The position numbers and the translations under genes were made by a program. From assembly GCA_002787095.1 (NCBI GenBank), contig PCVW01000010.1, positions 7,774 through 71,773 of the forward strand: a DNA stretch of 64,000 bases, written 5' to 3'. Below the pieces are notes generated by a model, which saw nothing but the letters and a program-made list of their open reading frames with translations, searched no databases and was not told the DNA's origin. Shown in pieces: positions 30,184-64,000 of the stretch. How positions within the stretch are numbered: position 1 is the first letter of the stretch; each line of letters starts with the position of its first letter. This DNA comes from Candidatus Omnitrophica bacterium CG11_big_fil_rev_8_21_14_0_20_64_10. GTDB lineage: Bacteria > Omnitrophota > Gorgyraeia > 1-14-0-20-64-10.

Positions 30184-31278
30184 TCAACTGCGGGCCGCAG
30201 CGTCGTCCGCTGCCGGCGGTTGGGAGGCCCTCAGGGCCGGGACCTGGTAGCTGGAGCAGAGCCGGCAGATGTCCACCGTTCCCTGATCGGAGCGGATCTG
30301 TTTCCGAAATGCCCGGTACTTGGGGCCGTTCCATATTTTTCCGAAATCCTCCCGGAAGACATTTCCCATGATGTGGTGGGCCTTTGGGTCCCGGCAGCAG
30401 GGAACGACGTTCCCGTTCCAGGTGATCACCGAGGAGAAGTAGATCCAGTCGCAGCGGTTCTCGGGGAGAACCTTCGGCCGCAGGATCCCCTTCCGGAAGG
30501 CCGCTTCATCGTAGAACCAGTACCGCTTGTCTTCCGGAAGCATCTGGATCGCCTGGGCCATGTTCCGCACGCAGGGATCCACAACATGGACCCGGTCCAC
30601 CCCCCACCCCGAAACGGTCCGGACGAATTCCTCCACCTCATGCTCGTTGTGCTTCATGACGATGAACCCGACATTGATCTGAGGTGTCTTGAGTGGTCCC
30701 CGGGTGCCGGATCCGCCGAGCCGTTTCCGGGCTTCCACGAGTCCCCGGATGTTGGCGCAGACACGGTCAAAGCTGCTGTTGATCCGGTAGGTTTGGTGGG
30801 TTGCCTGGGTCATGCCGCCGATGTTGAAGTTGATCTCGTCCAGGCCCGAACGGACCGTTCGTTCGGGGTCCAGAACGGAACCGTTTGAATAGATCGTCAC
30901 ATAGATTCCCTGGTCCTTGGCGTGGCGGATCATGTCGTAGATGCGGGGATGCCAGAAAGATTCCCCCATGAAGTAGAGCTGAATCGAGTTGGTGTGGTGC
31001 CGCACCTGAGCGATCACCCGCTGAAAATTCTCGAAGGACATCTGTCCCACCGGCCGGTCAATGATCTTAGCGCCGGTCTCGCAGACCGGACAGCCGAGGT
31101 CGCAGGCACTGGTCGGTTCGATCGTCAGGAAAGCGGGCCGGCCGGCCGCCCGTTCGGTCCGGAGCCAGGCTGAGGGGATCGTCCGGCAGAAGGCCCAGAA
31201 TCCTTTGGGGCGCTGCGAAGCCATCCAGGCGAATTTCTTCAGCTTGTGGAGGATCGGTTTCCGGATCGGTTCGCTCAC
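30184..31278 (-). CDS. radical SAM / SPASM-domain protein
   Basis: CDLGCPVC is a CxxxCxxC cluster; the C-terminus NGNVVPCCRDPKAHHIMGNV...CRLCSS is a SPASM-like Cys cluster. A GTG at 31278-31276 gives a GTGA overlap with the asnB-like stop. Alternative ATG at 31224. Confidence 0.75.
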   Translation of the reverse strand: MSEPIRKPILHKLKKFAWMASQRPKGFWAFCRTIPSAWLRTERAAGRPAFLTIEPTSACDLGCPVCETGAKIIDRPVGQMSFENFQRVIAQVRHHTNSIQLYFMGESFWHPRIYDMIRHAKDQGIYVTIYSNGSVLDPERTVRSGLDEINFNIGGMTQATHQTYRINSSFDRVCANIRGLVEARKRLGGSGTRGPLKTPQINVGFIVMKHNEHEVEEFVRTVSGWGVDRVHVVDPCVRNMAQAIQMLPEDKRYWFYDEAAFRKGILRPKVLPENRCDWIYFSSVITWNGNVVPCCRDPKAHHIMGNVFREDFGKIWNGPKYRAFRKQIRSDQGTVDICRLCSSYQVPALRASQPPAADDAAARS

Positions 31279-33107
31279 GATGTCCCCTTCCTGCTTTCGG
31301 CCGGAACCGGGAGGATCTCGCCGGCCGATTCCATGAAGCGGCGCAGCCACCATTCGAAAGCCGCCAGCGACCAGATCAGCAGCCGGTGATCGGCGCGGCC
31401 GTTCTGGTGGGATTCGAGGATTTCCTGAAGCCACGCCGGCTGGAAAACTTCGTTGACTCGGCTGTTCGGTTGAGCCAGCAAGGTTCGGACGGTTGCCATC
31501 CGGTCGGCCCGCAGCCAGGCCGATTCGGGGGGGCTGAATCCCTGTTTCGGACGCCGGCAGGTCCGTTCCGGGAGGAGGGGCGCCAGCGCCCGGCGCAGCA
31601 GCCGCTTTCCTTCCGGCCCGGGGTCCTTTTGTTCGACCGGCAGCCCCCGAACCCAATCGGACAATTCCAGGTCCAAAAACGGCACCCGGCTCTCCAGCCC
31701 ATGAGCCATGCTCAGCTTGTCCTCCACCATCAGCAGTCCCTGCAGAAAGGTGTCGGCTTCGAACCGAACCGCTTTCTCGACCGGCGGCAGCGCCCGATAG
31801 GGGGCGATCCGCTCCCGGTACCGCTCCCAAGGGGAATGGGAGCGCATCCGTCTCCAGACCTCCGGAAGGAAGGCATTGGCCTGCTCGTCTGGAGGGATCA
31901 GCCGGCACCAGGCGGCGAACTGGATCCGATCAAACTGCTCCGGGTCGTTCGCCTCGGCGATTGCCGCGTAACGCCAGGGGTAGCCGCCGAACAGTTCGTC
32001 TCCTCCGACGCCCGAGAGGACGACGGTCACGTCCCGGCGGGCCAGTTCCGCGGCGAAGAAATTGGGGTAGGACATCCCGACCCGAAGTTCTTCCAGGTGG
32101 GTCACGAGGCGGGGCAGCAGATCCCACCCGTCACCCGGTCCGATCGTCCGTTCATGATGCCGGGTCTTGAGCCGGCGGCTCAGCCACCGGGCCTCTTCCC
32201 GTTCGTCGAACCGGGCTTCGGGCCCGGTCACTCCCGAGACATCGAATCCGGCGGTAAAGGTATCGAGCTCGGGCAGCCGCCGCTGAGCCAACGCGACCAA
32301 AGCCCCGGAGTCCATCCCTCCGCTCAGGAAGGCGCCGACCGGCACGTCACTGATCAGGTGGCGGTTTACCGCCGCAGTCAGCCGTTGGAGCAGCTCTTCC
32401 TCCGTCCGCCCGGCCGGCTCGCTCCGGTTGACGGGGATGCCTTCGGCGATCCGATGGGTTCGGATCTTCCCCTCCGCCACTTCGAGCAATTCTCCGGCCG
32501 GGAGCAGTTCGATCCCGTCGAAAAGGGTCTGCCGGCCGAACAAATTCTGAAAGGTGAAGTACTCCCGAAGCGCTTCCCAACAGATCCGGCGGGGAGCTCC
32601 ATCGGCCTGCAGCAGCCCTTTGACTTCCGAAGCGAAATGAAGCCGATTTCGGAAGCGGCCCAGGTACAGCGGCTTGATTCCGAACCGGTCTCGGGCCAAC
32701 CAAAGGGTTTGGGAGCGGCCATCCCACAGGGCGAAGGCGAACATCCCGTTGAGCCGGGCGAAAGCCGCCGGTCCCTGCGCCTCGTACAGGTGGAGGATCA
32801 CCTCCCCATCGGTTTGGGAGGCGAAACGGTGCCCGAGCCCTTCGAGCTCCCGGCGCAGTTCCCGGAAGTTGTAGATCTCGCCGTTGAAAATCAGCTGCAG
32901 GCGGCCGTCCTCGTTGCCCAGCGGTTGGCGGGCCGTGTCGCTCAGGTCAATGATGGCCAGCCGCCGATGCCCGAGTCCGATCGGTCCTTCGAGGAAGAAG
33001 CCTTCCCCGTCGGGTCCCCGATGAGCGAGGGCCCGCGTCATTCGGATCAGCCCCGCCCGATCGGCCCGCCCGCCCGACAGGTCGATCATCCCGGCGATCC
33101 CGCACAT
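31275..33107 (-). CDS. asnB: asparagine synthase (glutamine-hydrolysing) family amidotransferase, copy 1
   Basis: N-terminal MCGIAGMIDL (Cys2 nucleophile), a GATase-2 domain, the PP-loop SGGMDSG and AsnB C-terminal blocks. The ATG at 33107-33105 forms a TGATG 1-nt overlap. Confidence 0.9.
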   Translation of the reverse strand: MCGIAGMIDLSGGRADRAGLIRMTRALAHRGPDGEGFFLEGPIGLGHRRLAIIDLSDTARQPLGNEDGRLQLIFNGEIYNFRELRRELEGLGHRFASQTDGEVILHLYEAQGPAAFARLNGMFAFALWDGRSQTLWLARDRFGIKPLYLGRFRNRLHFASEVKGLLQADGAPRRICWEALREYFTFQNLFGRQTLFDGIELLPAGELLEVAEGKIRTHRIAEGIPVNRSEPAGRTEEELLQRLTAAVNRHLISDVPVGAFLSGGMDSGALVALAQRRLPELDTFTAGFDVSGVTGPEARFDEREEARWLSRRLKTRHHERTIGPGDGWDLLPRLVTHLEELRVGMSYPNFFAAELARRDVTVVLSGVGGDELFGGYPWRYAAIAEANDPEQFDRIQFAAWCRLIPPDEQANAFLPEVWRRMRSHSPWERYRERIAPYRALPPVEKAVRFEADTFLQGLLMVEDKLSMAHGLESRVPFLDLELSDWVRGLPVEQKDPGPEGKRLLRRALAPLLPERTCRRPKQGFSPPESAWLRADRMATVRTLLAQPNSRVNEVFQPAWLQEILESHQNGRADHRLLIWSLAAFEWWLRRFMESAGEILPVPAESRKGTS

Positions 33108-34006
33108 CAGGCCTTCCGTCCGATCGCCGAGATGCCGTTCGGGTTCGGGGTCAGCAGGCGGATTTCCTTCAGGCCGGCCGCTTCGAACCATCCCCGCACT
33201 TCTTCCGGGGTATGACGGAAGGCGTGGGCGGGATGGTACCAGTCAAAGTTCACAAGGGTGTTTTCGTCGAACTTGAAATCGGGGTTCCAGAAACACTTGA
33301 AGAAATGATCGTAGATCAGCCGCTGCAGGTCATACCGGCCGGCCGGGATCCCCAGGCCCGGCAGGTCCTGCGGCACGTCAACGGTCGCCTGCATCTCGGA
33401 GAGCGCCTTTCCGAACCGGGTGAAGGCTTCGCTGAAGGCCCAGCAGGCTTCCGGCTCCATCCGGGTTGCTTCCGCTCGGAGCAAGTCATCGCAGAATTCC
33501 CGGGCCGGCCCCATCTTGCGGTAGACATGGATCGCGATCAGGCCGCCCGGCGCCAGGAACGGCAGCAGCGCTTCGAAGGCCCGGCGGGTATCTGGAGGGT
33601 GATGCAGGACCCCGTCGCTGACGATCAGATCGAACTGTTCTTTCCGGAATGGCATGCGGAAGAGGTCGGCTCGAAGAATCCGGGCGTTGGCGTGGTGCCG
33701 CACGTTTTGCCATGCTGGGACGACCGATTCCGAGAAATCGATGCCCACTGCCGGGGCGGTCCGGTTGAACCGGCAGAAGGTGTCGATCTTGGCCCCCAGC
33801 CCGGTCCCAACGTCGAGAAAGGAGCGCCGGCCGGACAAGAACGCAGGAAGCTGTTCGGGGGCCGGCAGTCCCAGTTTTCGGCTGAACCAGTCGTCGTAGA
33901 ACTGTTTTTGGCGCTCGTCCTGGAAACCGAATCCGGGCAGCCGGTTCCATTTGAACGAGAAACTGCTTTGGACCTGCCGGCGCCGGTCGGTCAATTCCGG
34001 AGTCAT
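33107..34006 (-). CDS. class I SAM-dependent methyltransferase (MT6)
   Basis: FLDVGTGLGAKI motif I; ATG at 34006-34004 in an ATGA overlap. Confidence 0.75.
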   Translation of the reverse strand: MTPELTDRRRQVQSSFSFKWNRLPGFGFQDERQKQFYDDWFSRKLGLPAPEQLPAFLSGRRSFLDVGTGLGAKIDTFCRFNRTAPAVGIDFSESVVPAWQNVRHHANARILRADLFRMPFRKEQFDLIVSDGVLHHPPDTRRAFEALLPFLAPGGLIAIHVYRKMGPAREFCDDLLRAEATRMEPEACWAFSEAFTRFGKALSEMQATVDVPQDLPGLGIPAGRYDLQRLIYDHFFKCFWNPDFKFDENTLVNFDWYHPAHAFRHTPEEVRGWFEAAGLKEIRLLTPNPNGISAIGRKA

Positions 34007-34581
34007 CGGGTTTGTTCCCGGTCGTAGACCAGCCGGACCCCGCCTTCGGCATCGGTCTCCACTCGGCCGACGATCCGGGCCGGGGCGCCGACGGCGATCG
34101 AATGCGCAGGAAGGTCTCGGTTCACGAAACTGTGGGCTCCGATCGCGCAGTGGTCTTCGATCGTCACCCCTTTCGCAATCGTGGCTTGAGGGCCGATGAA
34201 GCAGGCGTCGCCGATCCGGACCGGCGCATGGGCGTAGGGAGCTTTCCCGCCGCTCAAGGCCCAGGCGACGGTATCATGGGAGTAGATCTGAACGCCCGCC
34301 GAGATGCTGCAGAAATTTCCGATTCGGAGCTTTCCGGTTCCGTCGAGGATGACCAGGGGGCCGATCCAGGCGTTCTCTCCCACCGTCACATCGCCGTAAA
34401 CATAGCTGAGCTGGTAGATGCTGCTCCCCTTCCCGAAACCGAGCGCTTGCGCTCGTTCCTTCCGGTCAAACAGGGATTCTTCAAAAGGAAGGGAGCGGTT
34501 CCACTTCCGGCGGATTTGGAGATCCAGTTCCTGTCCGAGGCGCTTGAGCTGGGCGTGAAGGGGGTGGGGCAGCTTCGTCAT
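34003..34581 (-). CDS. hexapeptide-repeat (left-handed beta-helix) sugar acetyltransferase
   Basis: Repeated [LIV]G-x4 hexapeptides (GENAWIGPLVILDGTGKLRIGNFCSISAGVQIY...); ATG at 34581-34579. Confidence 0.8.
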   Translation of the reverse strand: MTKLPHPLHAQLKRLGQELDLQIRRKWNRSLPFEESLFDRKERAQALGFGKGSSIYQLSYVYGDVTVGENAWIGPLVILDGTGKLRIGNFCSISAGVQIYSHDTVAWALSGGKAPYAHAPVRIGDACFIGPQATIAKGVTIEDHCAIGAHSFVNRDLPAHSIAVGAPARIVGRVETDAEGGVRLVYDREQTR

Positions 34582-35741
34582 CGGGCGCTCAACTCCTTGC
34601 GGATTGTCTCGATCACCTGGTCCTGGTCGGCGGCGCTGAGTGCCGGATAGAGCGGCAGGGTCAGCGATTCCTGATCGGCCGTCCAGGCGTTCGGGAAATC
34701 TTCCGGACGAAAGCCGTATTTCCGGGCGTAGTAGTCCAGCGCATGGACCGCGTGGGTCCCCTGCCGGGTGGCGATCCCTTCCCCTTTGAGTTGTTCCGCC
34801 AGTTCATCCCGGGAACAGCGGGCCGCCGGCGTGATCCGGATGACATAGGATTGGAAGGGATGGACCTCCCCTTCCGGGATCGCCGGGGTTTCCAGTCCCG
34901 GCACGCCCCGCAGCCCTTCGGCATACCGCCGGGCCAGCCGGAGGCGGGCCTCCAGCAGCGCCGGGAGGCGCTTCATCTGGACCGCGCCGAGGGCGGCCTG
35001 GAAGTCTGTCATCCGGTAGTTGTAGCCGGCCAATCCGAATTGAGGCAGCCGGGCGCTCTGATCGCCGTGCCGGCTCCAATCCGACCGGGATTCCCCGTGC
35101 GATCGCAGCTGCCGAAGCCGTTCGGCGAGCGTTCCGTCGGCGGTGACGATCGCTCCCCCCTCCCCGGTCGTGATCACCTTCCGGGGGTGGAAGCTGAAGC
35201 AGCCGCTTGTCCCGAAGCTGCCGGCCGCCCGGGACCCGCTCCGGGCGCCGATGGCGCAGGCGGCATCCTCGATCACCCGCAGGTTCCGGCGCTCAGCCCA
35301 CGGCATCAGCCGGTCCATCGGGGCCATGCGGCCGAAGAGATGCACCGGGATCACGGCGCGGGTTTTCGAAGTGATCCGGGCCTCCCAGGCGTCGGGATCG
35401 ATGTTCCAGCTGTCGAGCCGGATGTCCACGAAGACGGGGCGGGCCCCGGTCTGCTCGACCGCGTTGGCGGTGGCGACATAGGTCAAGGCGGGGACCAGCA
35501 CCTCATCCCCCGGTCCGATCCCGCAGGCAACCAGACTCAGATGAAGGGCGGCGGTGCAGGAGGAGACGGCAATCGCGTGGGGGACGCCGCTCGATTCCGA
35601 CAAGAGGGTTTCGAACCGCCGGACCTGCTCCCCCTGGACCAGCCAGCCGCTCCGGAGGACCGCGGCGACCGCCTCCAGTTCCTCCGGACCGATGTTCGGT
35701 CGGGTGATCGGAATGGTCCTGGAAGCGGAGGCCGGGTTCAT
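34578..35741 (-). CDS. DegT/DnrJ/EryC1/StrS-family PLP-dependent sugar aminotransferase
   Basis: IPITRPNIGPEELEAV...AIAVSSCTAALHLSL...VPALTYVATANAV...FSFHPRKVITTGEGG. ATG at 35741-35739 in an ATGA overlap. Confidence 0.9.
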   Translation of the reverse strand: MNPASASRTIPITRPNIGPEELEAVAAVLRSGWLVQGEQVRRFETLLSESSGVPHAIAVSSCTAALHLSLVACGIGPGDEVLVPALTYVATANAVEQTGARPVFVDIRLDSWNIDPDAWEARITSKTRAVIPVHLFGRMAPMDRLMPWAERRNLRVIEDAACAIGARSGSRAAGSFGTSGCFSFHPRKVITTGEGGAIVTADGTLAERLRQLRSHGESRSDWSRHGDQSARLPQFGLAGYNYRMTDFQAALGAVQMKRLPALLEARLRLARRYAEGLRGVPGLETPAIPEGEVHPFQSYVIRITPAARCSRDELAEQLKGEGIATRQGTHAVHALDYYARKYGFRPEDFPNAWTADQESLTLPLYPALSAADQDQVIETIRKELSAR

Positions 35742-37435
35742 CGGCCGGCTCCGAAAGGAAAACGGTACCGGAGGCGCAGTTCCCCGTTCCGGTTCCAATC
35801 ATCCGACAGGTCGGGAGAGCTTCCCTTGATGCCCGACAGGTCCGTCGGCTGGAAGTAGCGGGAAGAACCCATGTGGCGGACCGAGAATTTTCCGGGACGC
35901 CGGAGCCATCGCATCGGCAGCGGCCGGGAGGCGGTGGAGATCAGATGGTCCACGACCTCGATCCAGTCCGGCTCCAGGGCGATCGTCCGGGTCAGCGCGA
36001 TCGGCGCCGTCCGATGTCGGTACAGCAGGGCGCCGACCAGCAGCCGCTTCAGCCACAGGGCGGCGGCCGGCAGCCGGCCGATCGTCAGGTTGAACAGCCG
36101 GAACAGGAAGAATGGGCCCGGCGAGAAGGTTTTCCTCGGCAGCCGGCGGAATTGTTTTTGGATCCGCCAGCTGTTGCCGGCATTCTCGATCCCCGCTTCG
36201 CCGGGATGCTGCAGCCACAGAGAGGAAACCAGTTCCCCGCCCCGGGTCAGGCCGGCGTAGCCGCCGTCGGCGATCACCGGCTGTCCGGTCGTCCGGTCCC
36301 AGGCTTTCAAGACCCCTCCCTTGGAGAGTCCCAGGATCGCGAAATAGCGCGGGGTGCTCTTGACCAGCAGCCCGGCTTCCGCGAAATGGCGCTCCCCTTC
36401 CCGCTCAAAACCGAAGGCCGGGCGCTGCGCGGGGATCGGACCGGCCGCTTCCTGCGCGAACAAGTAGTTGTTCAGCATCGGAAAGAAATTGTAGGGATCC
36501 ATCGCCGCCAATCCCGCCGCTTGCTGGTCGGCGACCGCCGGCCGCATCCAGGCGGCAATCGCGGCGGCCTGCGGGTCGTGGGGGGCCAGGATCTCAAAGG
36601 CCGCCGGAAAGAAGAATTCGGTGTCCCGGCTGCCGGTTTCGCCGCCGAGCGTCCGGTCGGGGTGGATCACCTCCAGCAGGAAGGCGCTGGCCCGTTTGAG
36701 CGTCGTCAGCAGCCGGCCCTCCCGCGACTGCTGCCAGATGCGGGCCAGGTAGAACATCCCCAGCGTCTGGTAGCCGGGATCGGCCCCGCCGTACTCATGC
36801 AGCCAGCCTTCGGCTGATTGGTGCTTCAGGATGATTTCCAGGAAGTGGTCCCGCCGCTGCAGGAAATCCCGTTCCGCCAACAGCTCTCCGGCGTGGTGAA
36901 GGGCGCCGGCGGCGGCGGCGAGGTGGTTGGTCAGGATCCCATGGGTTTCTCCCGATCGGCAGAGCCAGCGTCCCGCTTTCCGGAGGGCCGACTCAACGGT
37001 GTTCCGTTGGGGGACCGAGAGCCGGCCTTGAAGGCGCCGGAAGGCTTCGGCGGCATGAAACGCAGAGACCGCAGTGGCGGCCAGGCTCTGTTCGTGGGGG
37101 TAGGCCTCATCGAAGGAGCCGTCGGCGTGTTGAATCCGGCTCCAATAGAGCAGCGCGGCGGTCGCCCAGGCTTCGGCCTGAGGGAGGCCGGCATACCGGT
37201 TGCCGGGAAACGGCAGTGTCGCCACCGCGGCGAGGGCGTAGGCCCCTTCCTGGAAACGGGCTCCCGGGAAATCGGTGAACTTCCAGCACCAATGGGTCCG
37301 GTCCAGACAACCGTAACTCTTGGAATGCTCCTGACGGTCCAGCATCGAGAAGAGGCGGGGCAGCTCCGCCGTGATCCGGGCGGCGTACGGCGAAGCCAGC
37401 GCCTGCGAATCCGAAACGGCCGGTTGAGTCGGCAT
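35738..37435 (-). CDS. hypothetical protein (approx. 565 aa), possibly alpha/alpha-toroid carbohydrate-active fold (heparinase II/III-like?)
   Basis: No motif recognised with confidence. A helical N-terminal region rich in Trp/His (SYGCLDRTHWCWKF, HEQSLAATAVSAFHAAEA) and a beta-rich C-terminus. ATG at 37435-37433 (MPTQPAV...) in a TGATG overlap with the upstream stop. Confidence 0.4.
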   Translation of the reverse strand: MPTQPAVSDSQALASPYAARITAELPRLFSMLDRQEHSKSYGCLDRTHWCWKFTDFPGARFQEGAYALAAVATLPFPGNRYAGLPQAEAWATAALLYWSRIQHADGSFDEAYPHEQSLAATAVSAFHAAEAFRRLQGRLSVPQRNTVESALRKAGRWLCRSGETHGILTNHLAAAAGALHHAGELLAERDFLQRRDHFLEIILKHQSAEGWLHEYGGADPGYQTLGMFYLARIWQQSREGRLLTTLKRASAFLLEVIHPDRTLGGETGSRDTEFFFPAAFEILAPHDPQAAAIAAWMRPAVADQQAAGLAAMDPYNFFPMLNNYLFAQEAAGPIPAQRPAFGFEREGERHFAEAGLLVKSTPRYFAILGLSKGGVLKAWDRTTGQPVIADGGYAGLTRGGELVSSLWLQHPGEAGIENAGNSWRIQKQFRRLPRKTFSPGPFFLFRLFNLTIGRLPAAALWLKRLLVGALLYRHRTAPIALTRTIALEPDWIEVVDHLISTASRPLPMRWLRRPGKFSVRHMGSSRYFQPTDLSGIKGSSPDLSDDWNRNGELRLRYRFPFGAGR

Positions 37436-39003
37436 CAGGAATAGCGGGAACCCCGCCCCCGGTAGGTCCGGACCTCTTCGACCCAGGAAGCGAACAGAAA
37501 ATAGTAGAGACCGCTCCAGAGGAAGCGGAGGAACCGGCCAAACGGCATGTGCGGGAGATTCCGCAGCCAGGTCCAAACGGTCTTGGGCCGCAGATAGAAC
37601 TTCCGGAAGGCCTCCCGGGCGACCTGCTCCAGCTCCTCCCTGCTTCGGTGGGCGGGAACCCAAATCTTGTCGAAGTTGGTCAGCAGATGGTTCTGGTGTT
37701 CCCCGGACTGGATGAAGGAGCCGTTTTCGACCGCGTCTTTCCAGATCTCCGTCCCCGGGTACGGTTCGAAGATCGGGAAGACCGCGTAATCGAGGCGGCT
37801 GGTGACCGCGAAGGAGATCGTCTTGCGGGACTGCGCCGGGGTCTCGGTCGGCAGTCCCAGCATGAAGGAGGAGAGGGTCCGGATCCCGGCGGCGTTGGCG
37901 ATCCGGATCCCCTCGTAGTTCCGTTCGACGGTCAGCTTCTTCCGAATCAGGTTGAGCAGCTGCTGGTCCCCCGATTCGCAGCCGAAGACGATCAGGTAGC
38001 AGCCGGCCCGCTTCATCACCCGGCACAGTTCGGGATCCACCAAGTCGGTCCGGGTGAAGCACATCCAGCGGAACTGGTGCTTGTTGGACGCCAGCTTCTC
38101 GCAGAGGGCCAGCACCCGCTTCCGATTGGTCGTGAAGATGTCGTCGTAGAACTGGAAGCTGTCGAACCCGTAGGTTGTGTGGAGCCGGTTCAGGTCCTCC
38201 ACCACGCGCTGCGGCGAATGGTGGCGGAAGGTCCGGCCGAAGGTCATCTTGGCTTCACAGAAGGTGCACTCGTAGGGACAGCCGCGGGAGGTCACGTAAT
38301 TGGCGACCCGCCGGCCCCAGATGTGAATCGCCGGGTAGTAGCGGTCCATCGGGTAGAGATCGAGCGCCGGCATCGGGATGGAGTCCAGGTTCTGGATCAG
38401 CGGCTGTCGGGGAGTCCGGACGATTTGGCCGGACCGGTCCTTGACCCAGATCCCCGGCACCTGGGTCAGGGCCTTCGGGTCGTCCAGCGCGGCGGCAAGT
38501 CGGCAGAAGGAGATCTCCGCTTCGGAGATGATCACCGCGTCCACATGGGGGTTCTCGATCGTCCGTTCGGGGAAGATCGTCGCCTGCGGTCCCCCGAGCA
38601 CGACGCGGGCTTTGGGGGAGATCCGCTTGACCAGTTCCGCGACCTTCAGGCAGCGGTCGATGTTGTTGATGAAGACCGCCATGGAAACGATGTCGGGGCC
38701 GAACTCGGCCAGGTCCCGGGCGAGGGTGTCGTACCCCTGCCGGAGGATTTCGTAATCCACGAGGCGGACGGTGTGACCGACGCTGCGGGCGGCCGAGGCG
38801 ACATACGCCATCCCCAGCCAGGGCAGTTCGGTCGCCGCCACCGCGAGACGGCCATAGTTCATCTCAACCGATCCGGGAGGGACCAGGAAGAAGATTTTCC
38901 GCCGGGGGCCGCCCCGGAAATCATCGGCCCGGAAGAGGACGTCTTTCTGCAGGAGTTCGGAGGCCTTCGGGGCCTCCGGCGCGATCAGGAGGGATTCAAC
39001 CAT
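37435..39003 (-). CDS. B12-binding-domain radical SAM enzyme (class B radical SAM methyltransferase-like)
   Basis: N-terminal cobalamin-binding-like Rossmann (KARVVLGGPQAT), then TSRGCPYECTFCEA (CxxxCxxC). ATG at 39003-39001 (MVESLL...). Confidence 0.85.
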   Translation of the reverse strand: MVESLLIAPEAPKASELLQKDVLFRADDFRGGPRRKIFFLVPPGSVEMNYGRLAVAATELPWLGMAYVASAARSVGHTVRLVDYEILRQGYDTLARDLAEFGPDIVSMAVFINNIDRCLKVAELVKRISPKARVVLGGPQATIFPERTIENPHVDAVIISEAEISFCRLAAALDDPKALTQVPGIWVKDRSGQIVRTPRQPLIQNLDSIPMPALDLYPMDRYYPAIHIWGRRVANYVTSRGCPYECTFCEAKMTFGRTFRHHSPQRVVEDLNRLHTTYGFDSFQFYDDIFTTNRKRVLALCEKLASNKHQFRWMCFTRTDLVDPELCRVMKRAGCYLIVFGCESGDQQLLNLIRKKLTVERNYEGIRIANAAGIRTLSSFMLGLPTETPAQSRKTISFAVTSRLDYAVFPIFEPYPGTEIWKDAVENGSFIQSGEHQNHLLTNFDKIWVPAHRSREELEQVAREAFRKFYLRPKTVWTWLRNLPHMPFGRFLRFLWSGLYYFLFASWVEEVRTYRGRGSRYS

Positions 39004-39850
39004 GCGAGGGCCTCGAGGCGATCGCAACCGGCGCTCCGGCCGCTTCCCAAAGAGTTCGGCGCTCTCCCAAAACCAGCTGGAGCGCGGTCAAACGGCTGAT
39101 GGGCCGGTGCCGGCGGCGGTTGTCCGAGAAAGGGGAAAAACGGGTTGGCGCCGCCGGTCCTTCCAGGAGATAGGCGGTCTCTCCGACCACGGAGAGAGCC
39201 ACCGCCTGCCCGGCAATCCCCTCCCGGATCGGGGTGAGCCGGCCGGCCGGATCCAGCCGGCTCAAGCGGCCGGTCGTTCGGTCGGCGACCAGCAGGGTCC
39301 CGTTGGTTCCCCAGGGGGTCACACCGACTGGATTCGATAATTCCGTTTGTTTCCACAGCACTTGTCCGCTCTCCATTTCCCAGGCGACCACCGCCCCTCG
39401 AACGCCGTCCAGACAAATGGCGGCCATCACTCGTTTTCCATCCGGCGTCAGAACCAGCCGCCGGACACCCGGCGACAGACAAAACAAAGCTTTCGGGACC
39501 GCCTTGAAATTTTCCCAACAAAGAAGGCGGCCCGAAGTAGACTCCACCCCATAGATTGACCTGGACTTCAGGTCTAACCCTATGGCGCATAATTTGTTAC
39601 GGCCATGATACACCATTTGGAGGGGGCCGTCAGCCGATTTCATGAAGGCGATCCCCTCTTCGACGAGGAGCCACAGTCCCTCGGGGCTCCAGAGAAGGTC
39701 CAGCAGGGTTGAGGGGAGGGGGCGGCCGAGGCGGCGGATCGGGCCAGCGGCATCCCCGCCCCAAAGCCGAGCAAAGGATCTCCCCAGCCAATTGCGGCGA
39801 CGCAGAAGACAGAGAAGCGGTGGAAAGGAGTTTTTAGCGGGCGCCGGCAT
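38996..39850 (-). CDS. hypothetical protein, beta-propeller-like repeats (putative)
   Basis: It is the only open frame across 39003-39834. Repeated hydrophobic/Gly/Trp strands (YGVESTSGRLLCWE, GAVVAWEMESGQVLWKQT, GTLLVADRTTGRL) resemble PQQ/WD-like propeller blades. ATG at 39850-39848. It spans an AT-rich patch. Confidence 0.35.
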   Translation of the reverse strand: MPAPAKNSFPPLLCLLRRRNWLGRSFARLWGGDAAGPIRRLGRPLPSTLLDLLWSPEGLWLLVEEGIAFMKSADGPLQMVYHGRNKLCAIGLDLKSRSIYGVESTSGRLLCWENFKAVPKALFCLSPGVRRLVLTPDGKRVMAAICLDGVRGAVVAWEMESGQVLWKQTELSNPVGVTPWGTNGTLLVADRTTGRLSRLDPAGRLTPIREGIAGQAVALSVVGETAYLLEGPAAPTRFSPFSDNRRRHRPISRLTALQLVLGERRTLWEAAGAPVAIASRPSHG

Positions 39851-41051
39851 CCCGCCCGTCCAGCCAGCCGCTCTCTTCCAGCAACCGGGCAATCGCTTCG
39901 GCCACCGCCTGGTTGCCGACGGCATTCGTATGCTGCCAATCGATCGGAAAGCGGGTGTCGGCGGTTGCTTCGAAAGTTTCGGAGAGATCTGCCCAGCGGG
40001 CCGTCCCGTTCCGGCGGGCATCGGCTGCTTCGGCGATCCGGTTTCGAATCCGGTCCCGGATCCCCTCCCACAGCGGCCGGTAGGCGGGATTCGGAACACC
40101 TCCCGAAAGGCCCTGTTCCAGGACGGCCCGCTCCTGGGAACTTAAGGCCGGTTTGTCGAAGAGGGTCGGCTGCCAGAGAAAGAGGGTCTTGAATCCGTAC
40201 CGCTCCCCGAGGGCCGAGGCGATCCGGAAGTTCTGGAGATAGATGGAGGCGGCCGCCGCCTCCATCGATTCCAGCTGTTGGGGGTCCTGCCCGAACGGGC
40301 GGCCCGACGGGCCGCTCGTTCCCGAACGGTTTCCGGTCCCGATCAAACGGACCAGATGGGTTTCCTGAAATCGTTCCCGCACCCGGACGGCGAGGTGTCG
40401 GATCAGATCTCCGAAGCCGAGACTGTACCCGATCTTCTGCGCGTCTTCGTAGATGCCGGCGATTCGCTTCAGGTTGTGGTGGTCGCCGGGGGATCCCTGC
40501 GCGACCGCCACCGTCTCGTTGATCCCGTCGTAGAAGATTACGATGTCGGGCGCCGCGCCCCGTTCGAGCTGGTAGATGAGGTCGATCAGCTCCTGCGAGT
40601 TCACATAGCCGCCGATCCCGAAATTCACGCACTCGACCGGCTCCAGTCCCCGGTTGGCTCCGAGACGCTCGGCCAAGCGGGCCGGAATAGTCCAAGCGTC
40701 GGAGGCCCCCTGCCCCAGCATCGTGGAGCCTCCGAACAGGAAGATCCGCCGGGCCCCCGGCTGAACGGTTTGCGGGGTCCGCCGGCGTCCTTCCGAATCG
40801 ATGTTGATATGGCGGCCGACATGCGGCGCGTATCCCCAGACCCGGTACGGCAGATAACGGGCCCGGTAGAAGGCTTTCTGTTCGGAGGAGATCCCCGGAA
40901 AATCTTTCTCCGGGGTTTCCTGGAACCGATTCACCCGGGCCGCCTCCCGCCGGTCGAGGATCACCTTGGCCCCCACTTCCAGCAGACAGCCGGTGCCGCC
41001 GATGATCCCGGTCCAAACGGCCAGGAGCAGAACCAGCCGGCGGCCGCTCAT
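39834..41051 (-). CDS. SGNH/GDSL-like hydrolase (putative glycan O-acyl esterase / acyltransferase) with N-terminal TM
   Basis: TM helix, then RIFLFGGSTMLGQGA (block I), NFGIGGYVNSQE and VIFYDGINE blocks. ATG at 41051-41049 in an ATGA overlap; TAA stop at 39836-39834. Confidence 0.55.
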   Translation of the reverse strand: MSGRRLVLLLAVWTGIIGGTGCLLEVGAKVILDRREAARVNRFQETPEKDFPGISSEQKAFYRARYLPYRVWGYAPHVGRHINIDSEGRRRTPQTVQPGARRIFLFGGSTMLGQGASDAWTIPARLAERLGANRGLEPVECVNFGIGGYVNSQELIDLIYQLERGAAPDIVIFYDGINETVAVAQGSPGDHHNLKRIAGIYEDAQKIGYSLGFGDLIRHLAVRVRERFQETHLVRLIGTGNRSGTSGPSGRPFGQDPQQLESMEAAAASIYLQNFRIASALGERYGFKTLFLWQPTLFDKPALSSQERAVLEQGLSGGVPNPAYRPLWEGIRDRIRNRIAEAADARRNGTARWADLSETFEATADTRFPIDWQHTNAVGNQAVAEAIARLLEESGWLDGRDAGAR

Positions 41052-42937
41052 GCGGGGAGGATCTCCCGATCGATGAAGATCATGTGCCACCACTCCAGGA
41101 TAGCCAAGGCGAAGACCCGCTTCAAGCTCAGGAAATCGTCCGTCGAGGAGTGGGCCAACAGCATTCGGACCGCTTCCCATCGGAAGTAGCCCCGCCGCCG
41201 GACCCGCTGTTCGGTCAAAGTGGTCCCGATCAGCTCCCGCCAGGCGGCGCTCTGCGCGTACCGCTCGAGCGGGACATAGAAGGTCTGCTTCGGCCGGCGG
41301 ACCACGCGGCGGGGCAGCCAGCGGGCCGCCAACCGCCGGGCCGCGATCTTGTCCCGCCAAGCGGTCAGCTTGAGCGTTGTGGGGCAAGCGGCCAGATGTT
41401 CGACGAGGCGGTGATCCAGGAACGGGACCCGTCCCTCGATCCCGACCGCCATCGTCATCCGGTCCAACCGCAGAAGCAGATTGTCCGGCAGCCAATCCCG
41501 ATACTGCAGACGCAGGATCCCTTCAATCGAGTTGATTCCCGGTTCTCCCGCGGCGGCCCCCTCGGCCGGCGCAAGGGCCGGTTCGCAAAGCGCCTGAAGC
41601 TGCTGCGCGTCGAACAGGGAGCGCAGGTGAAGATTCCAGGCGGCCGGGTCGTTCCGTCGGGTGAGCTCAAGGTAATCCAGCAGTTTCCGCTTCCCGCTCT
41701 CCCCGAGGCCGGCCGGATAGCGGAATCCCCGACTCAAGCATTCCGCCGGGAGCCGACGGATCACCGCGGGAGCGATCCGGGTGAGCAGTCCCGGGGTTCG
41801 GCGCCGAAGCCGCAGCGTCCAGAAGAGGACCTGATGGAAGAGATAGCCGCCGAGCACCTCGTCTCCCCCCTCCCCGGTCAGGACCACTTTGACCTGCTTG
41901 GAAGCTTCCCGAGCGAGCAAAAACATCGGCAGAATGATGGCATCCCCCATCGGCTGGTCCAGATTCCAGATCAGCCGGGGGATTTGCTCCAGATCGGCCG
42001 CTTCGCATCGGAGGGTGTGATGGGGAGCGGCCAGCGCGGCGGCGGTCTCGGCGGCCCGGCTCGATTCGTCCCAACGGTCCCCGAACCCGATGCTGAAGGT
42101 GGGGTGGCCGGCCCGCGCTTCCCGGGCAATGGCCGCCAGAATCAGTCCGGAATCCAGCCCGCCGCTGAGGAAGGTGCCGACCGGCCGGTCGCTCATCAGC
42201 CGAAGCCGGACCGCCGTTTCGAACCGGCGCTCAAACTCCTCCTGGTACCGCGCCGCGCCGGCCTGGGACGCCGGTTCCTCCGGCAGGCGCCAGTAAGGCC
42301 GGAGGGTCAGCCGCCCGTTCTCAAACCAGCCGGCATGGGCCGGCGGCACGGAACGGATTCCCTCCAAGAGGGTGTCGGGACCCGGCACATAGCGGTTCCG
42401 CAGATACGGCAGGATTTTGTCCCGGCGGACCGTTCGGGAGACGGCGTCGGCTTCCAGGATCGCCTTGATCTCGGAGCCGAACAACAGCCGGCCGCCCCGT
42501 TCCCAGACATAAAGGGGCTTGATCCCGATCCGGTCCCGGGCCAGGAAGAGGCGGTCCCGTTTCCGGTCATGAATCGCGAAGGCGAACATGCCGTTGAACC
42601 GCTCCAGACAGGCCGGTCCCCATTCGGCAAAGGCCCGAAGGACCGTTTCGGTGTCGCACCGGCTCTGGAAACGGTGTCCCTTCACCCGAAGCTGTTCGGC
42701 GATCTCGGCGTGGTTGTAGATCTCGCCGTTGAACGCGATCCAGAGAGAACCGTCCTCGCTCGAACGGGGTTGGTGCCCCCCTTCCAGGTCCACGATGCTC
42801 AAGCGGCAGGCGGCCAGACCGATTCCCCCGTGGCGGGCCTGCCCCTGCCCGTCCGGCCCTCGATGGGCGATCACCCGGATCATCCGGTCAAGCGGATCGT
42901 TCCCGCTCCAGCCCGAATAGCCGGCGATTCCGCACAT
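41048..42937 (-). CDS. asnB: asparagine synthase (glutamine-hydrolysing) family amidotransferase, copy 2
   Basis: MCGIAGYSGW..., SGGLDSG and AsnB C-terminal blocks. The ATG at 42937-42935 sits in the same TGATG context (cgcacatcag) as copy 1. The 204-aa track extension is rejected. Confidence 0.9.
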   Translation of the reverse strand: MCGIAGYSGWSGNDPLDRMIRVIAHRGPDGQGQARHGGIGLAACRLSIVDLEGGHQPRSSEDGSLWIAFNGEIYNHAEIAEQLRVKGHRFQSRCDTETVLRAFAEWGPACLERFNGMFAFAIHDRKRDRLFLARDRIGIKPLYVWERGGRLLFGSEIKAILEADAVSRTVRRDKILPYLRNRYVPGPDTLLEGIRSVPPAHAGWFENGRLTLRPYWRLPEEPASQAGAARYQEEFERRFETAVRLRLMSDRPVGTFLSGGLDSGLILAAIAREARAGHPTFSIGFGDRWDESSRAAETAAALAAPHHTLRCEAADLEQIPRLIWNLDQPMGDAIILPMFLLAREASKQVKVVLTGEGGDEVLGGYLFHQVLFWTLRLRRRTPGLLTRIAPAVIRRLPAECLSRGFRYPAGLGESGKRKLLDYLELTRRNDPAAWNLHLRSLFDAQQLQALCEPALAPAEGAAAGEPGINSIEGILRLQYRDWLPDNLLLRLDRMTMAVGIEGRVPFLDHRLVEHLAACPTTLKLTAWRDKIAARRLAARWLPRRVVRRPKQTFYVPLERYAQSAAWRELIGTTLTEQRVRRRGYFRWEAVRMLLAHSSTDDFLSLKRVFALAILEWWHMIFIDREILPA

Positions 42938-44670
42938 CAGCCGGTTCCCCCGTGGAGGCGATAGACCGTGAAATGCCGGTTCTGATGGACCGGTTTCAAT
43001 GTCGGATGGGGGGCCGCAGCGGCCGGCAGGATCGCGTAATCGGCCCCGAACCGTTCTCCCAACCGGAGCAGCTCGGCGTCCGAGAGGGACCGGTACTGCT
43101 CCGCGAGTCCCCAGAAGGCTTCCCGCCGCCACGGGAGCGGTTCCGGTCCCAGGTGGTAGCGAAGATAGTGGTCGATCTCCGATCGGGCGGTTTGACTGGA
43201 GTAGATCGACCGCCCCAGATCCTGCCAGCTGATCGCCGGCGTCCGGCGGGAGAAAACCTCGAAACCGGACCAATCCGGCGGATTGAGGAAAACCGCGTCG
43301 GGCCGGCTGTTTTCCCGGGCCCAATCCTGGGTCTCTTTCCAGTCGGCGTTTTCCGAAGCGAGTCGGAGCTGCAGCCTGGGATTCGCCGCAAAGAGGGGTG
43401 GGAGGGCCTGAACGAAAATGTTGCAGGCCGCCAGCCCAAGCAGTCCGGTCCGGACGACGGCGGCGAATCGCCCGCCGGTTCCCTCCGGCAGCCGCCAGGA
43501 CCGGCCGGCCAGGAACGCGGCCGACAGGAAAACCAAAGGGAGGGTCCACCGGATCGCGTAATCAAGGAATAGGAGTCCGATCGCCAAGGCGATGCCGCTC
43601 CATCGCCGGACCGGTGCCGGATCGGAAAGGGCCGATTCCACCGAGGCGCACAGATAAAGGGAGAGCAGCAATAGGAGATAGTCGGAGGCGCGCAAGAGGG
43701 TCAGTTTGGCCAGAAGCACCACCGGCCGGATCTCGCTGAAGAAAACTCCCGCGGCGCACAACACTCCGGCGCCGGCCGCCAGGAGCCCCGCCCCTCGATC
43801 CCGGAGCCGTTGTTCTTCCGATCGCTCCATGCGATGGCGGACCCATCCCCCGGCGGCGGCGTATGCCAGGAGCCCGCCCCAGAGATATCCCCCCCAGGAA
43901 AAGGGAAAAAGATGATGGTTTTTCCGGATCCGCATCAGCGCCCACCAGGTTTCCGGATCGAGTCCGGCGGAAGCGTAGATCTGCCAGCGGGGGAGAAAAT
44001 AGATGACTGCCGGAAGCAGCGCCAGCAGGAACCAGGCGGCGCACCGGAGCCGGCGGGCGCCGGTGGGGCGGTTGGGAGCCCACAGCAGCAGCGGCGCGGC
44101 CAAGCCGCAGAGAATTACCGCGTGGGTCGGATGGATCGAAAAGAAGAGCCCCAGCCCCGCGGCCGCCCATTCCCAGCGGCCCCGCAGCAGCGCGGCCAGG
44201 ATCCAGAGGCCGCAGGAGAAAGCGACGAAGTGCCAGGCGTGGTAGACGCCGATCTTCCAGGCAAACCCCATTCCGAGGGCTCCCGCCCCGCCACCAATCA
44301 GGAGAATCACGGCTAGCAGGCTTACCCGCCGGTTTTTAAAAAGGGCCTGCGCGACGGTCCAGACTCCGCCGACCGCCAGACCGCAGAGGAGCGCCAGGCG
44401 GAGGGTCTCGGCGATGCCTTCCGGCCAGTCGAACAGCGCCCATCCCCGGGCCCAGATCCACTGCAGCGGGGAGAGGGTCGTCGTCATCGCTTCCCGCAGG
44501 GGATGTCCGACCAGCCATTCGGGATGGGCGAACAGTTGAATCGGGACGATCAGGTCGGAACCTTCGACCGCCACCGCCCAGGGGTGCCGCCAAACCCTCA
44601 AGAGGAAGAGGCCGACGGCGATCGCCAGCGGCAGAAGCCGGTCGGCTCCTTTCCCCCTTTCGAGGGTCAC
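42937..44670 (-). CDS. polytopic membrane protein with C-terminal soluble domain (hypothetical; polymerase/GT-C-like?)
   Basis: At least 12 predicted TM segments and no confident motif. GTG start at 44670-44668 in a GTGA overlap. Confidence 0.45.
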   Translation of the reverse strand: MTLERGKGADRLLPLAIAVGLFLLRVWRHPWAVAVEGSDLIVPIQLFAHPEWLVGHPLREAMTTTLSPLQWIWARGWALFDWPEGIAETLRLALLCGLAVGGVWTVAQALFKNRRVSLLAVILLIGGGAGALGMGFAWKIGVYHAWHFVAFSCGLWILAALLRGRWEWAAAGLGLFFSIHPTHAVILCGLAAPLLLWAPNRPTGARRLRCAAWFLLALLPAVIYFLPRWQIYASAGLDPETWWALMRIRKNHHLFPFSWGGYLWGGLLAYAAAGGWVRHRMERSEEQRLRDRGAGLLAAGAGVLCAAGVFFSEIRPVVLLAKLTLLRASDYLLLLLSLYLCASVESALSDPAPVRRWSGIALAIGLLFLDYAIRWTLPLVFLSAAFLAGRSWRLPEGTGGRFAAVVRTGLLGLAACNIFVQALPPLFAANPRLQLRLASENADWKETQDWARENSRPDAVFLNPPDWSGFEVFSRRTPAISWQDLGRSIYSSQTARSEIDHYLRYHLGPEPLPWRREAFWGLAEQYRSLSDAELLRLGERFGADYAILPAAAAPHPTLKPVHQNRHFTVYRLHGGTG

Positions 44671-45626
44671 CGACTGCTCCGGGAGGCCACCAATTTCTTC
44701 AAGCCGGTTTCCAGGGAAACCGCCGCCCGAAACCCCAGTGCCCGCTGAGCCGCTTCGGTAGAGCCGACCCGGTGCTGGACGAATGAGACCGCTTCCGATT
44801 GGAAGATCGGCGTGAGGGTGCTTCCGGTCGCCTCCAGCAGCCGCTCCACGAGCTCCCGGATCGTCGTCCGACGACCGGTCCCCACGTTAAACGCTTGATC
44901 GTTTGCCTGAGCCCGGGCGGCCAGCACATTGGCCCGGGCCACATCGGTGACATCCACGAAATCGTAGGATTGGGAGCCGTCCCCGTGAATCACCGGCGCT
45001 TCCCCCCGCTCGATCCGTTCCAGCACCTTCATGATGACGCTGGTGTAGGCCCCCTTGTCGTCCTGGCGGGGACCGTAGACATTCATGTAGCGCAGCGCGG
45101 CGTAGTCGAGTCCGTAGCGGTGGTGGTGGGCCCGGCACATCTGCTCTCCGGCGATCTTCGTGGCCCCGTAGAAGGTGGTGTTGTTCAGGGGATGGCCCTC
45201 CCGCATGGGGAACTCCACCGCGTCGCCATAAACCGACGCGGAAGAGGAGAAGACCAGGCGGGGGGTCCGGTGCTGGACGCAGGCCTGCAGCACATTGAAG
45301 GTCCCCCGGATGTTCACCTCAAACGCCGCTTCCGGGTGTTCCTGGCAGTGCAGCAACCAGAGGGCGGCCAGATGAAAAACGACCTCCCTGCCCCGGAAGG
45401 CCCGGTCCAGCCGGTCGGTCTCCAGGATGCTGGCCTCCTTTTCGAAAACTGAAACCCGGGGGTCCCGAAGGGCCGATTCCAGGTGGGCCGGTTTCCCCCG
45501 GCTGAAGTCGTCGTATACGAGGATCTCGGCCGGGGATTCCCCGAGCAGCGCCTCGACCAGATGGGAACCGATGAAGCCGGCCCCGCCGATCACCAGCAGC
45601 CGTTTGTTCCGGAGCGAGCGGCTCAT
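44667..45626 (-). CDS. NAD-dependent nucleotide-sugar epimerase/dehydratase (SDR)
   Basis: RLLVIGGAGFIGSHLVEAL and catalytic YGATK. ATG at 45626-45624 in an ATGA overlap; the 81-aa track extension is rejected. Confidence 0.85.
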   Translation of the reverse strand: MSRSLRNKRLLVIGGAGFIGSHLVEALLGESPAEILVYDDFSRGKPAHLESALRDPRVSVFEKEASILETDRLDRAFRGREVVFHLAALWLLHCQEHPEAAFEVNIRGTFNVLQACVQHRTPRLVFSSSASVYGDAVEFPMREGHPLNNTTFYGATKIAGEQMCRAHHHRYGLDYAALRYMNVYGPRQDDKGAYTSVIMKVLERIERGEAPVIHGDGSQSYDFVDVTDVARANVLAARAQANDQAFNVGTGRRTTIRELVERLLEATGSTLTPIFQSEAVSFVQHRVGSTEAAQRALGFRAAVSLETGLKKLVASRSSR

Positions 45627-50438: not shown

Positions 50439-50446
50439 GGATCGGC

Positions 50447-50896
50447 TCAGCGGTGCTGGATCCGCCAGTCGTACGGGATTGCGCCGCTCGCCGGATCGAG
50501 GCGCTCGATCTCATCCGGATCATGGGGAATCGTCGCGCAGTTGGCCACGATCGCCGGGGTCGTTCCCATCCCCTTGAAGCCGTTCCAGATGAAGGGGGGG
50601 ACCTGCACCAGCTGGTATTGGGACTCCCCGAGGAAGACCTCCTGGATCTCCCCGCGGCTCCTGGAGTCGGGCCGGTCGTCGTACAGCGCCAGCTTGATCA
50701 TCCCGACCGGCACCGCGTAGTTGATCGTCATCCGGGAATGTTTGTGCCATCCCTTGACGACCCCGGGATAGACGGAGGAGAAATAAATTTCCCCGAATTT
50801 CTCAAAATGGGGATCGGTCGCCTTCAGCATGTGCATGACCCGGCCCCGTTCGTCCGGGATCACCTTGAGCGGGATGATCCGCACCCCCTCGATCAT
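50447..50896 (-). CDS. RmlC-like cupin (NDP-4-keto-6-deoxyhexose 3,5-epimerase family)
   Basis: [18 protein letters not shown]...KGWHKH, an RmlC-type fold. ATG at 50896-50894 in an ATGA overlap. Confidence 0.7.
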
Positions 50897-51930: not shown

Positions 51931-51933
51931 CGT

Positions 51934-52767: not shown

Positions 52768-52768
52768 C

Positions 52769-63970: not shown

Positions 63971-64000
63971 CTTGAAACAGCCGCTCCGGCCGGCGTTTCC

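Follow-up and report, generated by a model that had tools for sequence, protein, structure and literature searches.

WbpS, WbqG and PGN_1234 are AsnB homologues that convert N-acetylhexosamine (HexNAc) uronic acids to uronamides in the O-antigen, anionic lipopolysaccharide (A-LPS) and N-glycan pathways, and knock-outs of them abolish uronamide formation (PMC7468200, PMC6025236). WbpS-type proteins are assigned to the family TIGR03108, eps_aminotran_1 (PMC7468200). Here we analyse AsnB-family genes in a glycan locus of Candidatus Omnitrophica bacterium CG11_big_fil_rev_8_21_14_0_20_64_10, two of which, AsnB1 and AsnB2, lie within the 64,000-nucleotide stretch under study (the window) and begin in an identical ten-base sequence. 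As in the described systems, the enzymes are of the full-length AsnB type and are encoded in a glycan locus among Wbp-type genes. They differ in scoring 442 (AsnB1) and 422 bits (AsnB2) on TIGR03108, for which the cut-off is 816.9 bits, in lying apart from a true TIGR03108 member, which falls in a separate clade, and in having no WbpA/WbpO-type 6-dehydrogenase on their contig. The label "WbpS-like", which the first-pass annotation of the window had given them, fails on these three points, while WbpS-type amidation as a functional parallel is plausible in kind, by analogy. Judging from their residues and gene neighbours, the enzymes are most likely glycan-tailoring carboxylate amidotransferases. 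As a whole, we think it probable that they are glycan-operon AsnB enzymes from separate cassettes, that they amidate carboxylates, and that the ten bases shared by their starts are convergent.

The features on which this reading depends are as follows, with positions given in the window unless a locus label (L followed by a number) precedes them; subtracting 7744 from a position in the ENA copy of the contig gives the window position.

31275-33107, minus strand: AsnB1, AsnB-family amidotransferase of 610 amino acids (translation, Pfam, NCBIfam, residue mapping)
41048-42937, minus strand: AsnB2, AsnB-family amidotransferase of 629 amino acids, in a clade other than that of AsnB1 and 100% identical to a protein of the Omnitrophica metagenome-assembled genome (translation, Pfam, NCBIfam, residues)
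63967-64000, minus strand: 3' end of AsnB3, a gene for a protein of 647 amino acids that runs beyond the window to about 65910 (L134:2075-4018)
33101-33110, minus strand: junction 1, CTGATGTGCG, in which the TGA of a methyltransferase gene shares its A with the ATG of AsnB1
42931-42940, minus strand: junction 2, CTGATGTGCG, in which the TGA of a DUF6798 gene shares its A with the ATG of AsnB2

Translation and Pfam agree with the first-pass annotation that AsnB1 and AsnB2 are AsnB-type open reading frames at these positions and that both proteins begin MCGIAG. GATase_7/GATase_6 and Asn_synthase domains are found above gathering scores in both, with 149.5 and 158 bits for GATase_7 and 290.8 and 284.2 bits for Asn_synthase in AsnB1 and AsnB2, respectively. 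The count of two paralogues is right as far as the window goes, but the contig holds three, AsnB3 lying mostly outside the window. Domain scans of its genes show the window to be a glycan locus throughout, about 65% GC, with almost every gene on the minus strand. It contains heptosyltransferases, two Wzy_C proteins, a WecA/WbpL-like initiating transferase, a flippase, numerous glycosyltransferases and methyltransferases, a 6-deoxy C-methyl sugar pathway, and WbpB-like, WbpD-like, WbpI/WecB-like and DegT genes. The window is most of a nearly unidirectional cell-envelope glycan operon of about 70 kb, and the earlier view of a polysaccharide setting with a different tailoring set beside each AsnB gene is borne out by neighbour domains and synteny.

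AsnB1, AsnB2 and AsnB3 are full-length enzymes of the AsnB superfamily, in which a class II (N-terminal-nucleophile) glutamine amidotransferase is fused to a PP-loop synthetase; in each, a Cys1 glutaminase domain at the N terminus is joined to an adenylating PP-loop domain. They belong to three deeply separated clades, and their pairwise identities are 36-41%. Between AsnB1 and AsnB2, 41% of positions are identical in the N-terminal 380 residues and 31% in the C-terminal part, and each has its best foreign homologues at 52-53%. The top-120 hit lists of the two do not overlap. The hits of AsnB1 carry the metagenome-assembled genome (MAG) labels Thermoleophilia, Chloroflexi, Gaiellaceae and Acidobacteriota, and those of AsnB2 Deltaproteobacteria, Planctomycetota, Omnitrophica and archaeal. 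In a neighbour-joining tree of 34 sequences with 50 bootstrap replicates, the AsnB1 clade and the AsnB2 core clade were each recovered in 50/50 replicates; AsnB1 and AsnB2 were sisters in 0/50, and the smallest clade with both always held at least 22 of the 34 taxa. A third clade grouped the TIGR03108 member with its close relatives; E. coli AsnB fell outside all three. This placement is that of non-housekeeping proteins, as had been proposed, and the NF006949 model of housekeeping AsnB agrees: AsnB1, AsnB2 and AsnB3 score 295, 278 and 279 bits, below the cut-off of 499, and E. coli AsnB, as a control, scores 1050. The cut-off of TIGR03104 (N-acetylglutaminylglutamine amidotransferase, 570.1 bits) was not reached either (377 and 389 bits for AsnB1 and AsnB2). 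Both proteins pass TIGR01536 (431 and 433 bits, cut-off 267.1), which marks the superfamily and not a function, because it is passed also by the true TIGR03108 member and by AsnB1, which lacks the Glu348 discussed below.

AsnB1, AsnB2 and their clades were aligned to E. coli AsnB, with residue roles taken from work on human ASNS (PMC6748925). With E. coli AsnB and human ASNS, to which they are about 32% identical, AsnB1 and AsnB2 share the two domains, the PP-loop and residues Cys1, Arg49, Asn74, Glu76, Asp98, Asp351, Glu352 and Lys449; these residues, the SGGxDS motif and Lys429 are kept in both proteins and their clades. Unlike in those enzymes, the C-terminal third diverges and carries long insertions. 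Cys1 is conserved in 120/120 AsnB1-type and 114/120 AsnB2-type relatives, and the glutaminase and ATP-binding (PP-loop) sites are intact in all three paralogues. With the residues for glutamine use and adenylation retained, glutamine hydrolysis and adenylation would be expected in both AsnB1 and AsnB2.

The two differ at other active-site residues. Position 348 is Val in AsnB1 and A, T, V or G in 120/120 AsnB1-type hits, whereas it is Glu in AsnB2 and E or D in 119/120 AsnB2-type hits; AsnB3 has Asp. Position 387, Arg in E. coli AsnB, is Val in AsnB1 and in 119/120 of its relatives, and position 322 has changed from Thr to Arg in AsnB1 and in 120/120. AsnB2 retains Glu348, Asp351, Glu352, Arg387 and Lys449, and its clade has Lys or Arg at 387. 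In a superfamily pool of 27,079 representatives of 50%-identity clusters at E below 1e-30, about 85-90 of the nearest 150 carry the AsnB1 signature. Glu364 of human ASNS corresponds to Glu348, and its E364A and E364Q variants are inactive (PMC6748925). Because its clade has replaced both Glu348 and Arg387, AsnB1 is very unlikely to be an asparagine synthetase. The first-pass annotation had suggested that these enzymes amidate uronates rather than make asparagine; the second half of that claim stands in so far as AsnB1 is without Glu348 and neither copy is of housekeeping type, but membership of the WbpS family and a 6-dehydrogenase to supply uronates were not found.

AsnB1 belongs to a cassette (cassette 1) of a GalE-like short-chain dehydrogenase/reductase (SDR), a C4 aminotransferase, a Pcryo_0619-like N-acetyltransferase, a methyltransferase, AsnB and a radical SAM/SPASM enzyme, which recurs in contigs of other metagenomes and MAGs. 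Besides AsnB1 it consists of the following genes.

44667-45626, minus strand: GalE-like SDR, 319 amino acids, with motifs SSSASVYG and YGATK and no Asp-Glu pair
34578-35741, minus strand: DegT-family aminotransferase of the C4 type, ArnB-like or perosamine-synthase-like (Pfam and PDB matches)
34003-34581, minus strand: hexapeptide-repeat N-acetyltransferase (Pfam, synteny)
33107-34006, minus strand: class I SAM methyltransferase, 299 amino acids, the immediate upstream partner of AsnB1-clade genes (Pfam)
30184-31278, minus strand: radical SAM/SPASM enzyme, 364 amino acids, with a GTG start in a 4-nt overlap with the AsnB1 stop (Pfam)

AsnB1-type genes lie directly downstream of a class I methyltransferase in L122, L126 and L129, where the methyltransferases are 44-59% identical to that of the window. 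Hexapeptide acetyltransferase and DegT aminotransferase genes are near AsnB1-type genes in L122 and L126, and a GalE-like SDR is near them in L021, L122, L126, L129, L131 and L132; the window's SDR is 56-65% identical to SDRs beside DegT or AsnB1-type genes in L021, L122, L126 and L129. An orthologue of the radical SAM/SPASM enzyme is adjacent to the AsnB1-type gene in L122 (45% identity) and two genes away in L126. Overall, the partner proteins are 44-65% identical to their window counterparts, in contigs whose AsnB proteins are labelled as Actinomycetota, Chloroflexota or Acidobacteriota MAGs, in addition to the Omnitrophica MAG of the window. From its motifs, whose meaning is well established in this superfamily, the SDR can be read as of the 4-epimerase or 4-oxidase type rather than as a 4,6-dehydratase. 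The DegT protein matches ArnB (244 bits), perosamine synthetase (237), 8VR3 (228) and WbpE (156). The closest solved relative of the N-acetyltransferase is Pcryo_0619 of Psychrobacter cryohalolentis (PDB 8VR6), at 160 bits against 58 for the next best; titles of the 8VR entries were obtained through a fold search. Its AlphaFold model had a pLDDT (predicted local distance difference test) of 76 and a TM (template modelling) score of 0.28 on its own homologue, and no structural conclusion was drawn from it. For the radical SAM/SPASM enzyme the only PDB matches were BlsE, a cytosylglucuronate decarboxylase, and BtrN.

These matches make the Pcryo_0617-0619 proteins of P. cryohalolentis K5 (PDB 8VR2, 8VR3/8VR5, 8VR6/8VR7/8VRM) the nearest described parallel for the aminotransferase and N-acetyltransferase of cassette 1, with the difference that the cassette SDR is GalE-like and matches 8VR2 weakly (110 bits). 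We take Pcryo_0617-0619 to be a triacetamido-arabinose pathway that starts from UDP-diacetamido-glucuronic acid. The O-antigen of this strain contains 2,3,4-triacetamido-2,3,4-trideoxy-L-arabinose (PMC8040287). The closest solved relatives of the AsnB1 neighbours thus appear to lean towards uronic-acid-derived substrates.

AsnB2 has a different set of companions (cassette 2): a GT-C-like membrane protein, AsnB, a 405-amino-acid SGNH-like protein, a B12 radical SAM enzyme and a 565-amino-acid protein. The genes around AsnB2 are these.

42937-44670, minus strand: DUF6798 polytopic membrane protein, 577 amino acids, probably GT-C-like, the upstream partner of AsnB2 (Pfam)
39834-41051, minus strand: 405-amino-acid protein with a weak GDSL/SGNH match, downstream of AsnB2
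38996-39850, minus strand: 284-amino-acid protein with a weak PQQ_2 profile match
37435-39003, minus strand: B12-binding radical SAM enzyme, 522 amino acids (Pfam, NCBIfam)
35738-37435, minus strand: 565-amino-acid protein with a precomputed Ulvan_lyase_N hit, co-occurring with AsnB2-type genes

PMT_2 membrane proteins take the position of the DUF6798 protein, upstream of the AsnB2-type gene, in L124 and L133. Elsewhere AsnB2-type genes are accompanied either by a 395-405-amino-acid protein and a B12 radical SAM enzyme (L124) or by the 565-amino-acid protein (L127, L040). In L124 the 405-amino-acid protein has an orthologue at the same position (35% identity), and the B12 radical SAM enzyme, which matches AprD4 and TokK in the PDB, has one at 68% identity. 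The 565-amino-acid protein is 45% and 32% identical to its counterparts beside AsnB2-type genes in L127 and L040, and searches of the PDB and NCBIfam gave no match for it. Cassette 2, from 42937 down to 35738, sits between the SDR (44667-45626) and DegT (34578-35741) genes of cassette 1; in the AsnB1-type cassettes of L126 and L129 these two genes are neighbours. The arrangement looks like one cassette nested in the other, and both boundaries of the nested cassette are 4-nt overlaps.

AsnB3 follows genes for an LPG_synthase_TM protein and a methyltransferase. It also begins MCGIAG, but its junction is a TAG stop and a 3-nt gap, with no overlap. It is 36-37% identical to AsnB1 and AsnB2, reaches 565 bits on TIGR03108 over its full length, and is 41% identical over that length to the true member, which makes it the most WbpS-like of the three paralogues. 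Two AsnB paralogues within 8-18 kb are also found in L036 (two matches), in L126 (2217-4157 and 8001-9833) and in L132 (8001-9827 and 16245-17827), so glycan loci with multiple AsnB genes, from unrelated MAGs, are a recurring pattern.

If the enzymes are glycan-tailoring amidotransferases, each would activate, by adenylation, the carboxylate of an intermediate (a nucleotide sugar or a lipid-linked glycan) and convert it to a carboxamide with ammonia channelled from glutamine. AsnB1 probably acts on a sugar made by its own cassette, a 4-acetamido sugar on which a carboxylate is retained or introduced, although a different chemistry such as amidine formation may apply. UDP-uronic acids are probably present in the cell, as the locus encodes one further SDR that resembles a UDP-glucuronate decarboxylase.

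647-1708, minus strand: UDP-glucuronate-decarboxylase-like SDR, with motifs SSSEIYGDP and ACYDESKR and human UXS1 as best PDB match (198 bits)

Since this SDR is UXS-like, a pool of UDP-uronic acid is probably available. FemAB/Acetyltransf_6 (VimA-like) genes were seen near AsnB1-type and AsnB2-type genes at L122:11027-12046 and L133:7953-8996; they recall the Wbp/Vim pathway of Porphyromonas, and none was seen in the window.

Several observations weigh against this reading. No nucleoside diphosphate (NDP)-sugar 6-dehydrogenase was found on the 75.7-kb contig, by UDPG_MGDP_dh domain or by GGxCxxKD motif, nor in the nine homologous neighbourhoods examined, and uronic-acid substrates are therefore without support from local context. 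On TIGR03108, AsnB1 and AsnB2 score like generic AsnB-like proteins (424-453 bits) and far below the true member, L013 (888 bits). This member, from our genome scan, stood as proxy in a tree without authentic WbpS, WbqG and PGN_1234, and the tree itself is a simple one. The view that Glu348 is needed for asparagine synthesis is an extrapolation from human ASNS and E. coli AsnB. Finally, no residue linked to aspartate binding has been lost from AsnB2 or AsnB3, and on residues alone asparagine synthesis by both is possible.

The first-pass annotation had also reported that the ATG of each gene overlaps the upstream stop by one base within the same decamer, and the sequence confirms it. On the minus strand the decamer is CTGATGTGCG (plus strand CGCACATCAG), and it occurs exactly twice in the window, at the two AsnB starts, against 0.15 occurrences expected; 1 of 100 shuffles reached two. 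The repeat is no random noise, yet it is no free coincidence either, because ATGTGCG is fixed by Met-Cys-Gly (7 of the 10 bases, ATG TGC G, code for these residues) and CTGA is standard for one-base overlaps in this operon. In AsnB enzymes the catalytic nucleophile is the Cys right after the initiator Met, which ties the start site to one position. At 65% GC, the expected codons are TGC and GGN. With T as the base after ATG, a Met-Cys start is unable to form the ATGA overlap, and reading the next 15 coding bases showed no possible out-of-frame stop; T(G/A)ATG is therefore the sole compact junction open to AsnB genes.

The rest of the operon uses the same parts. By gene calls and junction sequences, 16 of 20 consecutive junctions overlap, nine as ATGA or GTGA and four by one base; TGA is used at 18 of the 19 stops in the stretch examined, and all four one-base overlaps read CTGATG. 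Two of these four involve no AsnB gene (C-methyltransferase to reductase, and B12 radical SAM to the 565-amino-acid protein). Across the whole window CTGATG is present 47 times against 32 expected, with 38 of the 47 on the coding (minus) strand, a count that mixes Leu-Met codon pairs with stop/start overlaps. For a wider survey, one genome per species was scanned for ATGTGCGGNATCGCNGG, which returned 120 loci, 84 of them AsnB-like. TGATG was found at 15 of these 84 unrelated genes, 14 times as the identical decamer CTGATGTGCG, and TAATG at six. The overlapping junctions are consistent with translational coupling. The decamer would follow from a fixed ATG-TGC-GG, from TGATG as the only compact junction, from near-universal TGA stops and from the usual wobble C, and it appears to have arisen independently at the two starts. 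We conclude that the identity of the junctions is an ordinary outcome of coding constraint and operon compaction.

The alternative put forward in the first-pass annotation was an old duplication within the lineage, in which the overlapping stop/start coupling signal was copied along with the gene and has been preserved since. Intergenic architecture conserved as such a fossilised signal would have been out of the ordinary, and it is what one might suspect from a decamer found only at the two starts and from proteins that both begin MCGIAG. It does not hold, and we consider it highly improbable. At 41% and 31% protein identity unconstrained DNA is not expected to stay identical, each copy is nearer to homologues of other phyla, and the copies are never sisters in the tree. 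Aligned upstream of the CTG, the two junctions are identical at 8/27 nt, about the level of unrelated 65% GC sequence, and lend no support to a duplicated junction; the Shine-Dalgarno-like runs are both purine-rich and differ in sequence and spacing. Pfam assigns the two genes upstream to different kinds, one coding for a class I methyltransferase and the other for a DUF6798 membrane protein. Among nine orthologue junctions for which DNA was fetched, CTGATG is present only in L132; at the other eight, assorted stops are separated from the start by 1 to about 530 nt. The decamer is shared, moreover, with 14 of 84 unrelated genes, and both non-AsnB one-base overlaps of the operon are also CTGATG.

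On function, one competing view is that AsnB2 (or AsnB3) is a working asparagine synthetase that merely resides in a glycan operon. AsnB2 does retain Glu348, Asp351, Glu352, Arg387 and Lys449, it passes TIGR01536 (433 versus 267 bits), and the contig has no further asnB, but TIGR01536 is as undiscriminating here as for AsnB1, the NF006949 cut-off is not reached, the start overlaps the upstream stop in keeping with translational coupling, and synteny with a GT-C-like protein, the 395-405-amino-acid protein and the B12 radical SAM enzyme is kept in unrelated contigs. We regard this as distinctly unlikely. For AsnB1 one may ask whether the product is something other than a simple carboxamide, for example an amidine formed from an acetamido group and then N-methylated by the neighbouring methyltransferase, or the result of transferring another nitrogen nucleophile. 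The clade-wide loss of Glu348 and Arg387 and gain of an invariant Arg322 would suit such a change, as would the methyltransferase that is the constant partner of AsnB1. The best solved relative of both AsnB1 and AsnB2 is a long AsnB-type hydroxyamidotransferase, TsnB9 (PDB 7YLZ; 199 and 202 bits), although the similarity is modest and the genomic context unrelated. We take TsnB9 to be a secondary-metabolite enzyme that transfers hydroxylamine. In Campylobacter, PtmH is reportedly paired with an amidino-forming amidotransferase. PtmH as an N-methyltransferase offers a precedent (PMC3766260). Nothing in the AsnB1 sequence, on the other hand, identifies the acceptor. Acetamidino-forming enzymes of the PseA, WbpG and PtmG type, to our knowledge, have no glutaminase domain and belong to another family, a mismatch that reduced the Legionella/Campylobacter lead of acetamidino group plus N-methyltransferase to an analogy, and we set it aside. 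We hold the different chemistry to be rather unlikely. The pairing of AsnB with radical SAM enzymes also recalls the maturation of ribosomally synthesised and post-translationally modified peptides (RiPPs), as by lasso-peptide cyclases, rather than glycan synthesis: AsnB1 and AsnB2 match the lasso cyclase model NF033535 weakly (203 and 219 bits, cut-off 525), and the best NCBIfam match of the B12 radical SAM enzyme is the RiPP enzyme ApyD. Every one of these scores is far under its cut-off, both proteins have a fully intact Cys1 glutaminase site, the genes interleave and overlap with sugar aminotransferase, acetyltransferase, SDR and glycosyltransferase genes, and the only solved relatives of the radical SAM/SPASM enzyme act on sugars. 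On the sub-cut-off scores and the interleaving with sugar genes we rejected this idea, which has very little chance of being right.

Other features of the locus were noted in passing. Two genes encode NDP-hexose C-methyltransferases (Methyltransf_13/14), one in the 1719-3002 region and one at 49200-50369 (minus strand). One of them lies among genes (48304-52769) for a nucleotidyltransferase, a 4,6-dehydratase, a cupin isomerase and an RmlD-like reductase, a group that points to a pathway for a branched 6-deoxy C-methyl sugar. The open reading frames at 22273-23898 (541 amino acids) and 24532-26409 (625 amino acids), both on the minus strand, have coding-like GC at third codon positions and no Pfam match. 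Several GT-C/PMT_2-type membrane proteins are encoded at 54747-61993 and 42937-44670 (minus strand), and proteins of this type adjoin two of the three AsnB genes; a small DPM1/ArnC-like GT2 is encoded at 63263-63970. Together, this set and the GT2 suggest periplasmic decoration of the glycan from polyprenyl-phosphate sugars.

For the reading of gene junctions these results carry a caution. Any two N-terminal-nucleophile (Ntn) amidotransferase genes in a compact, high-GC operon may end up with a TGATGTGCGG start, because a Met-Cys-Gly start rules out the usual ATGA overlap. For the AsnB family, they indicate that giant glycan loci in uncultured bacteria draw on several clades for their AsnB enzymes, three in the present case, and that the annotation "asparagine synthase" is uninformative for AsnB enzymes of such loci. 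One AsnB clade has systematically lost a residue that asparagine synthesis requires and recurs with the same set of sugar-tailoring genes, and so offers a concrete cassette in which to look for new chemistry. As a tentative suggestion, AsnB1 represents a large, unnamed AsnB subfamily that, with its partners, may make an undescribed amide- or amidine-bearing 4-acetamido sugar.

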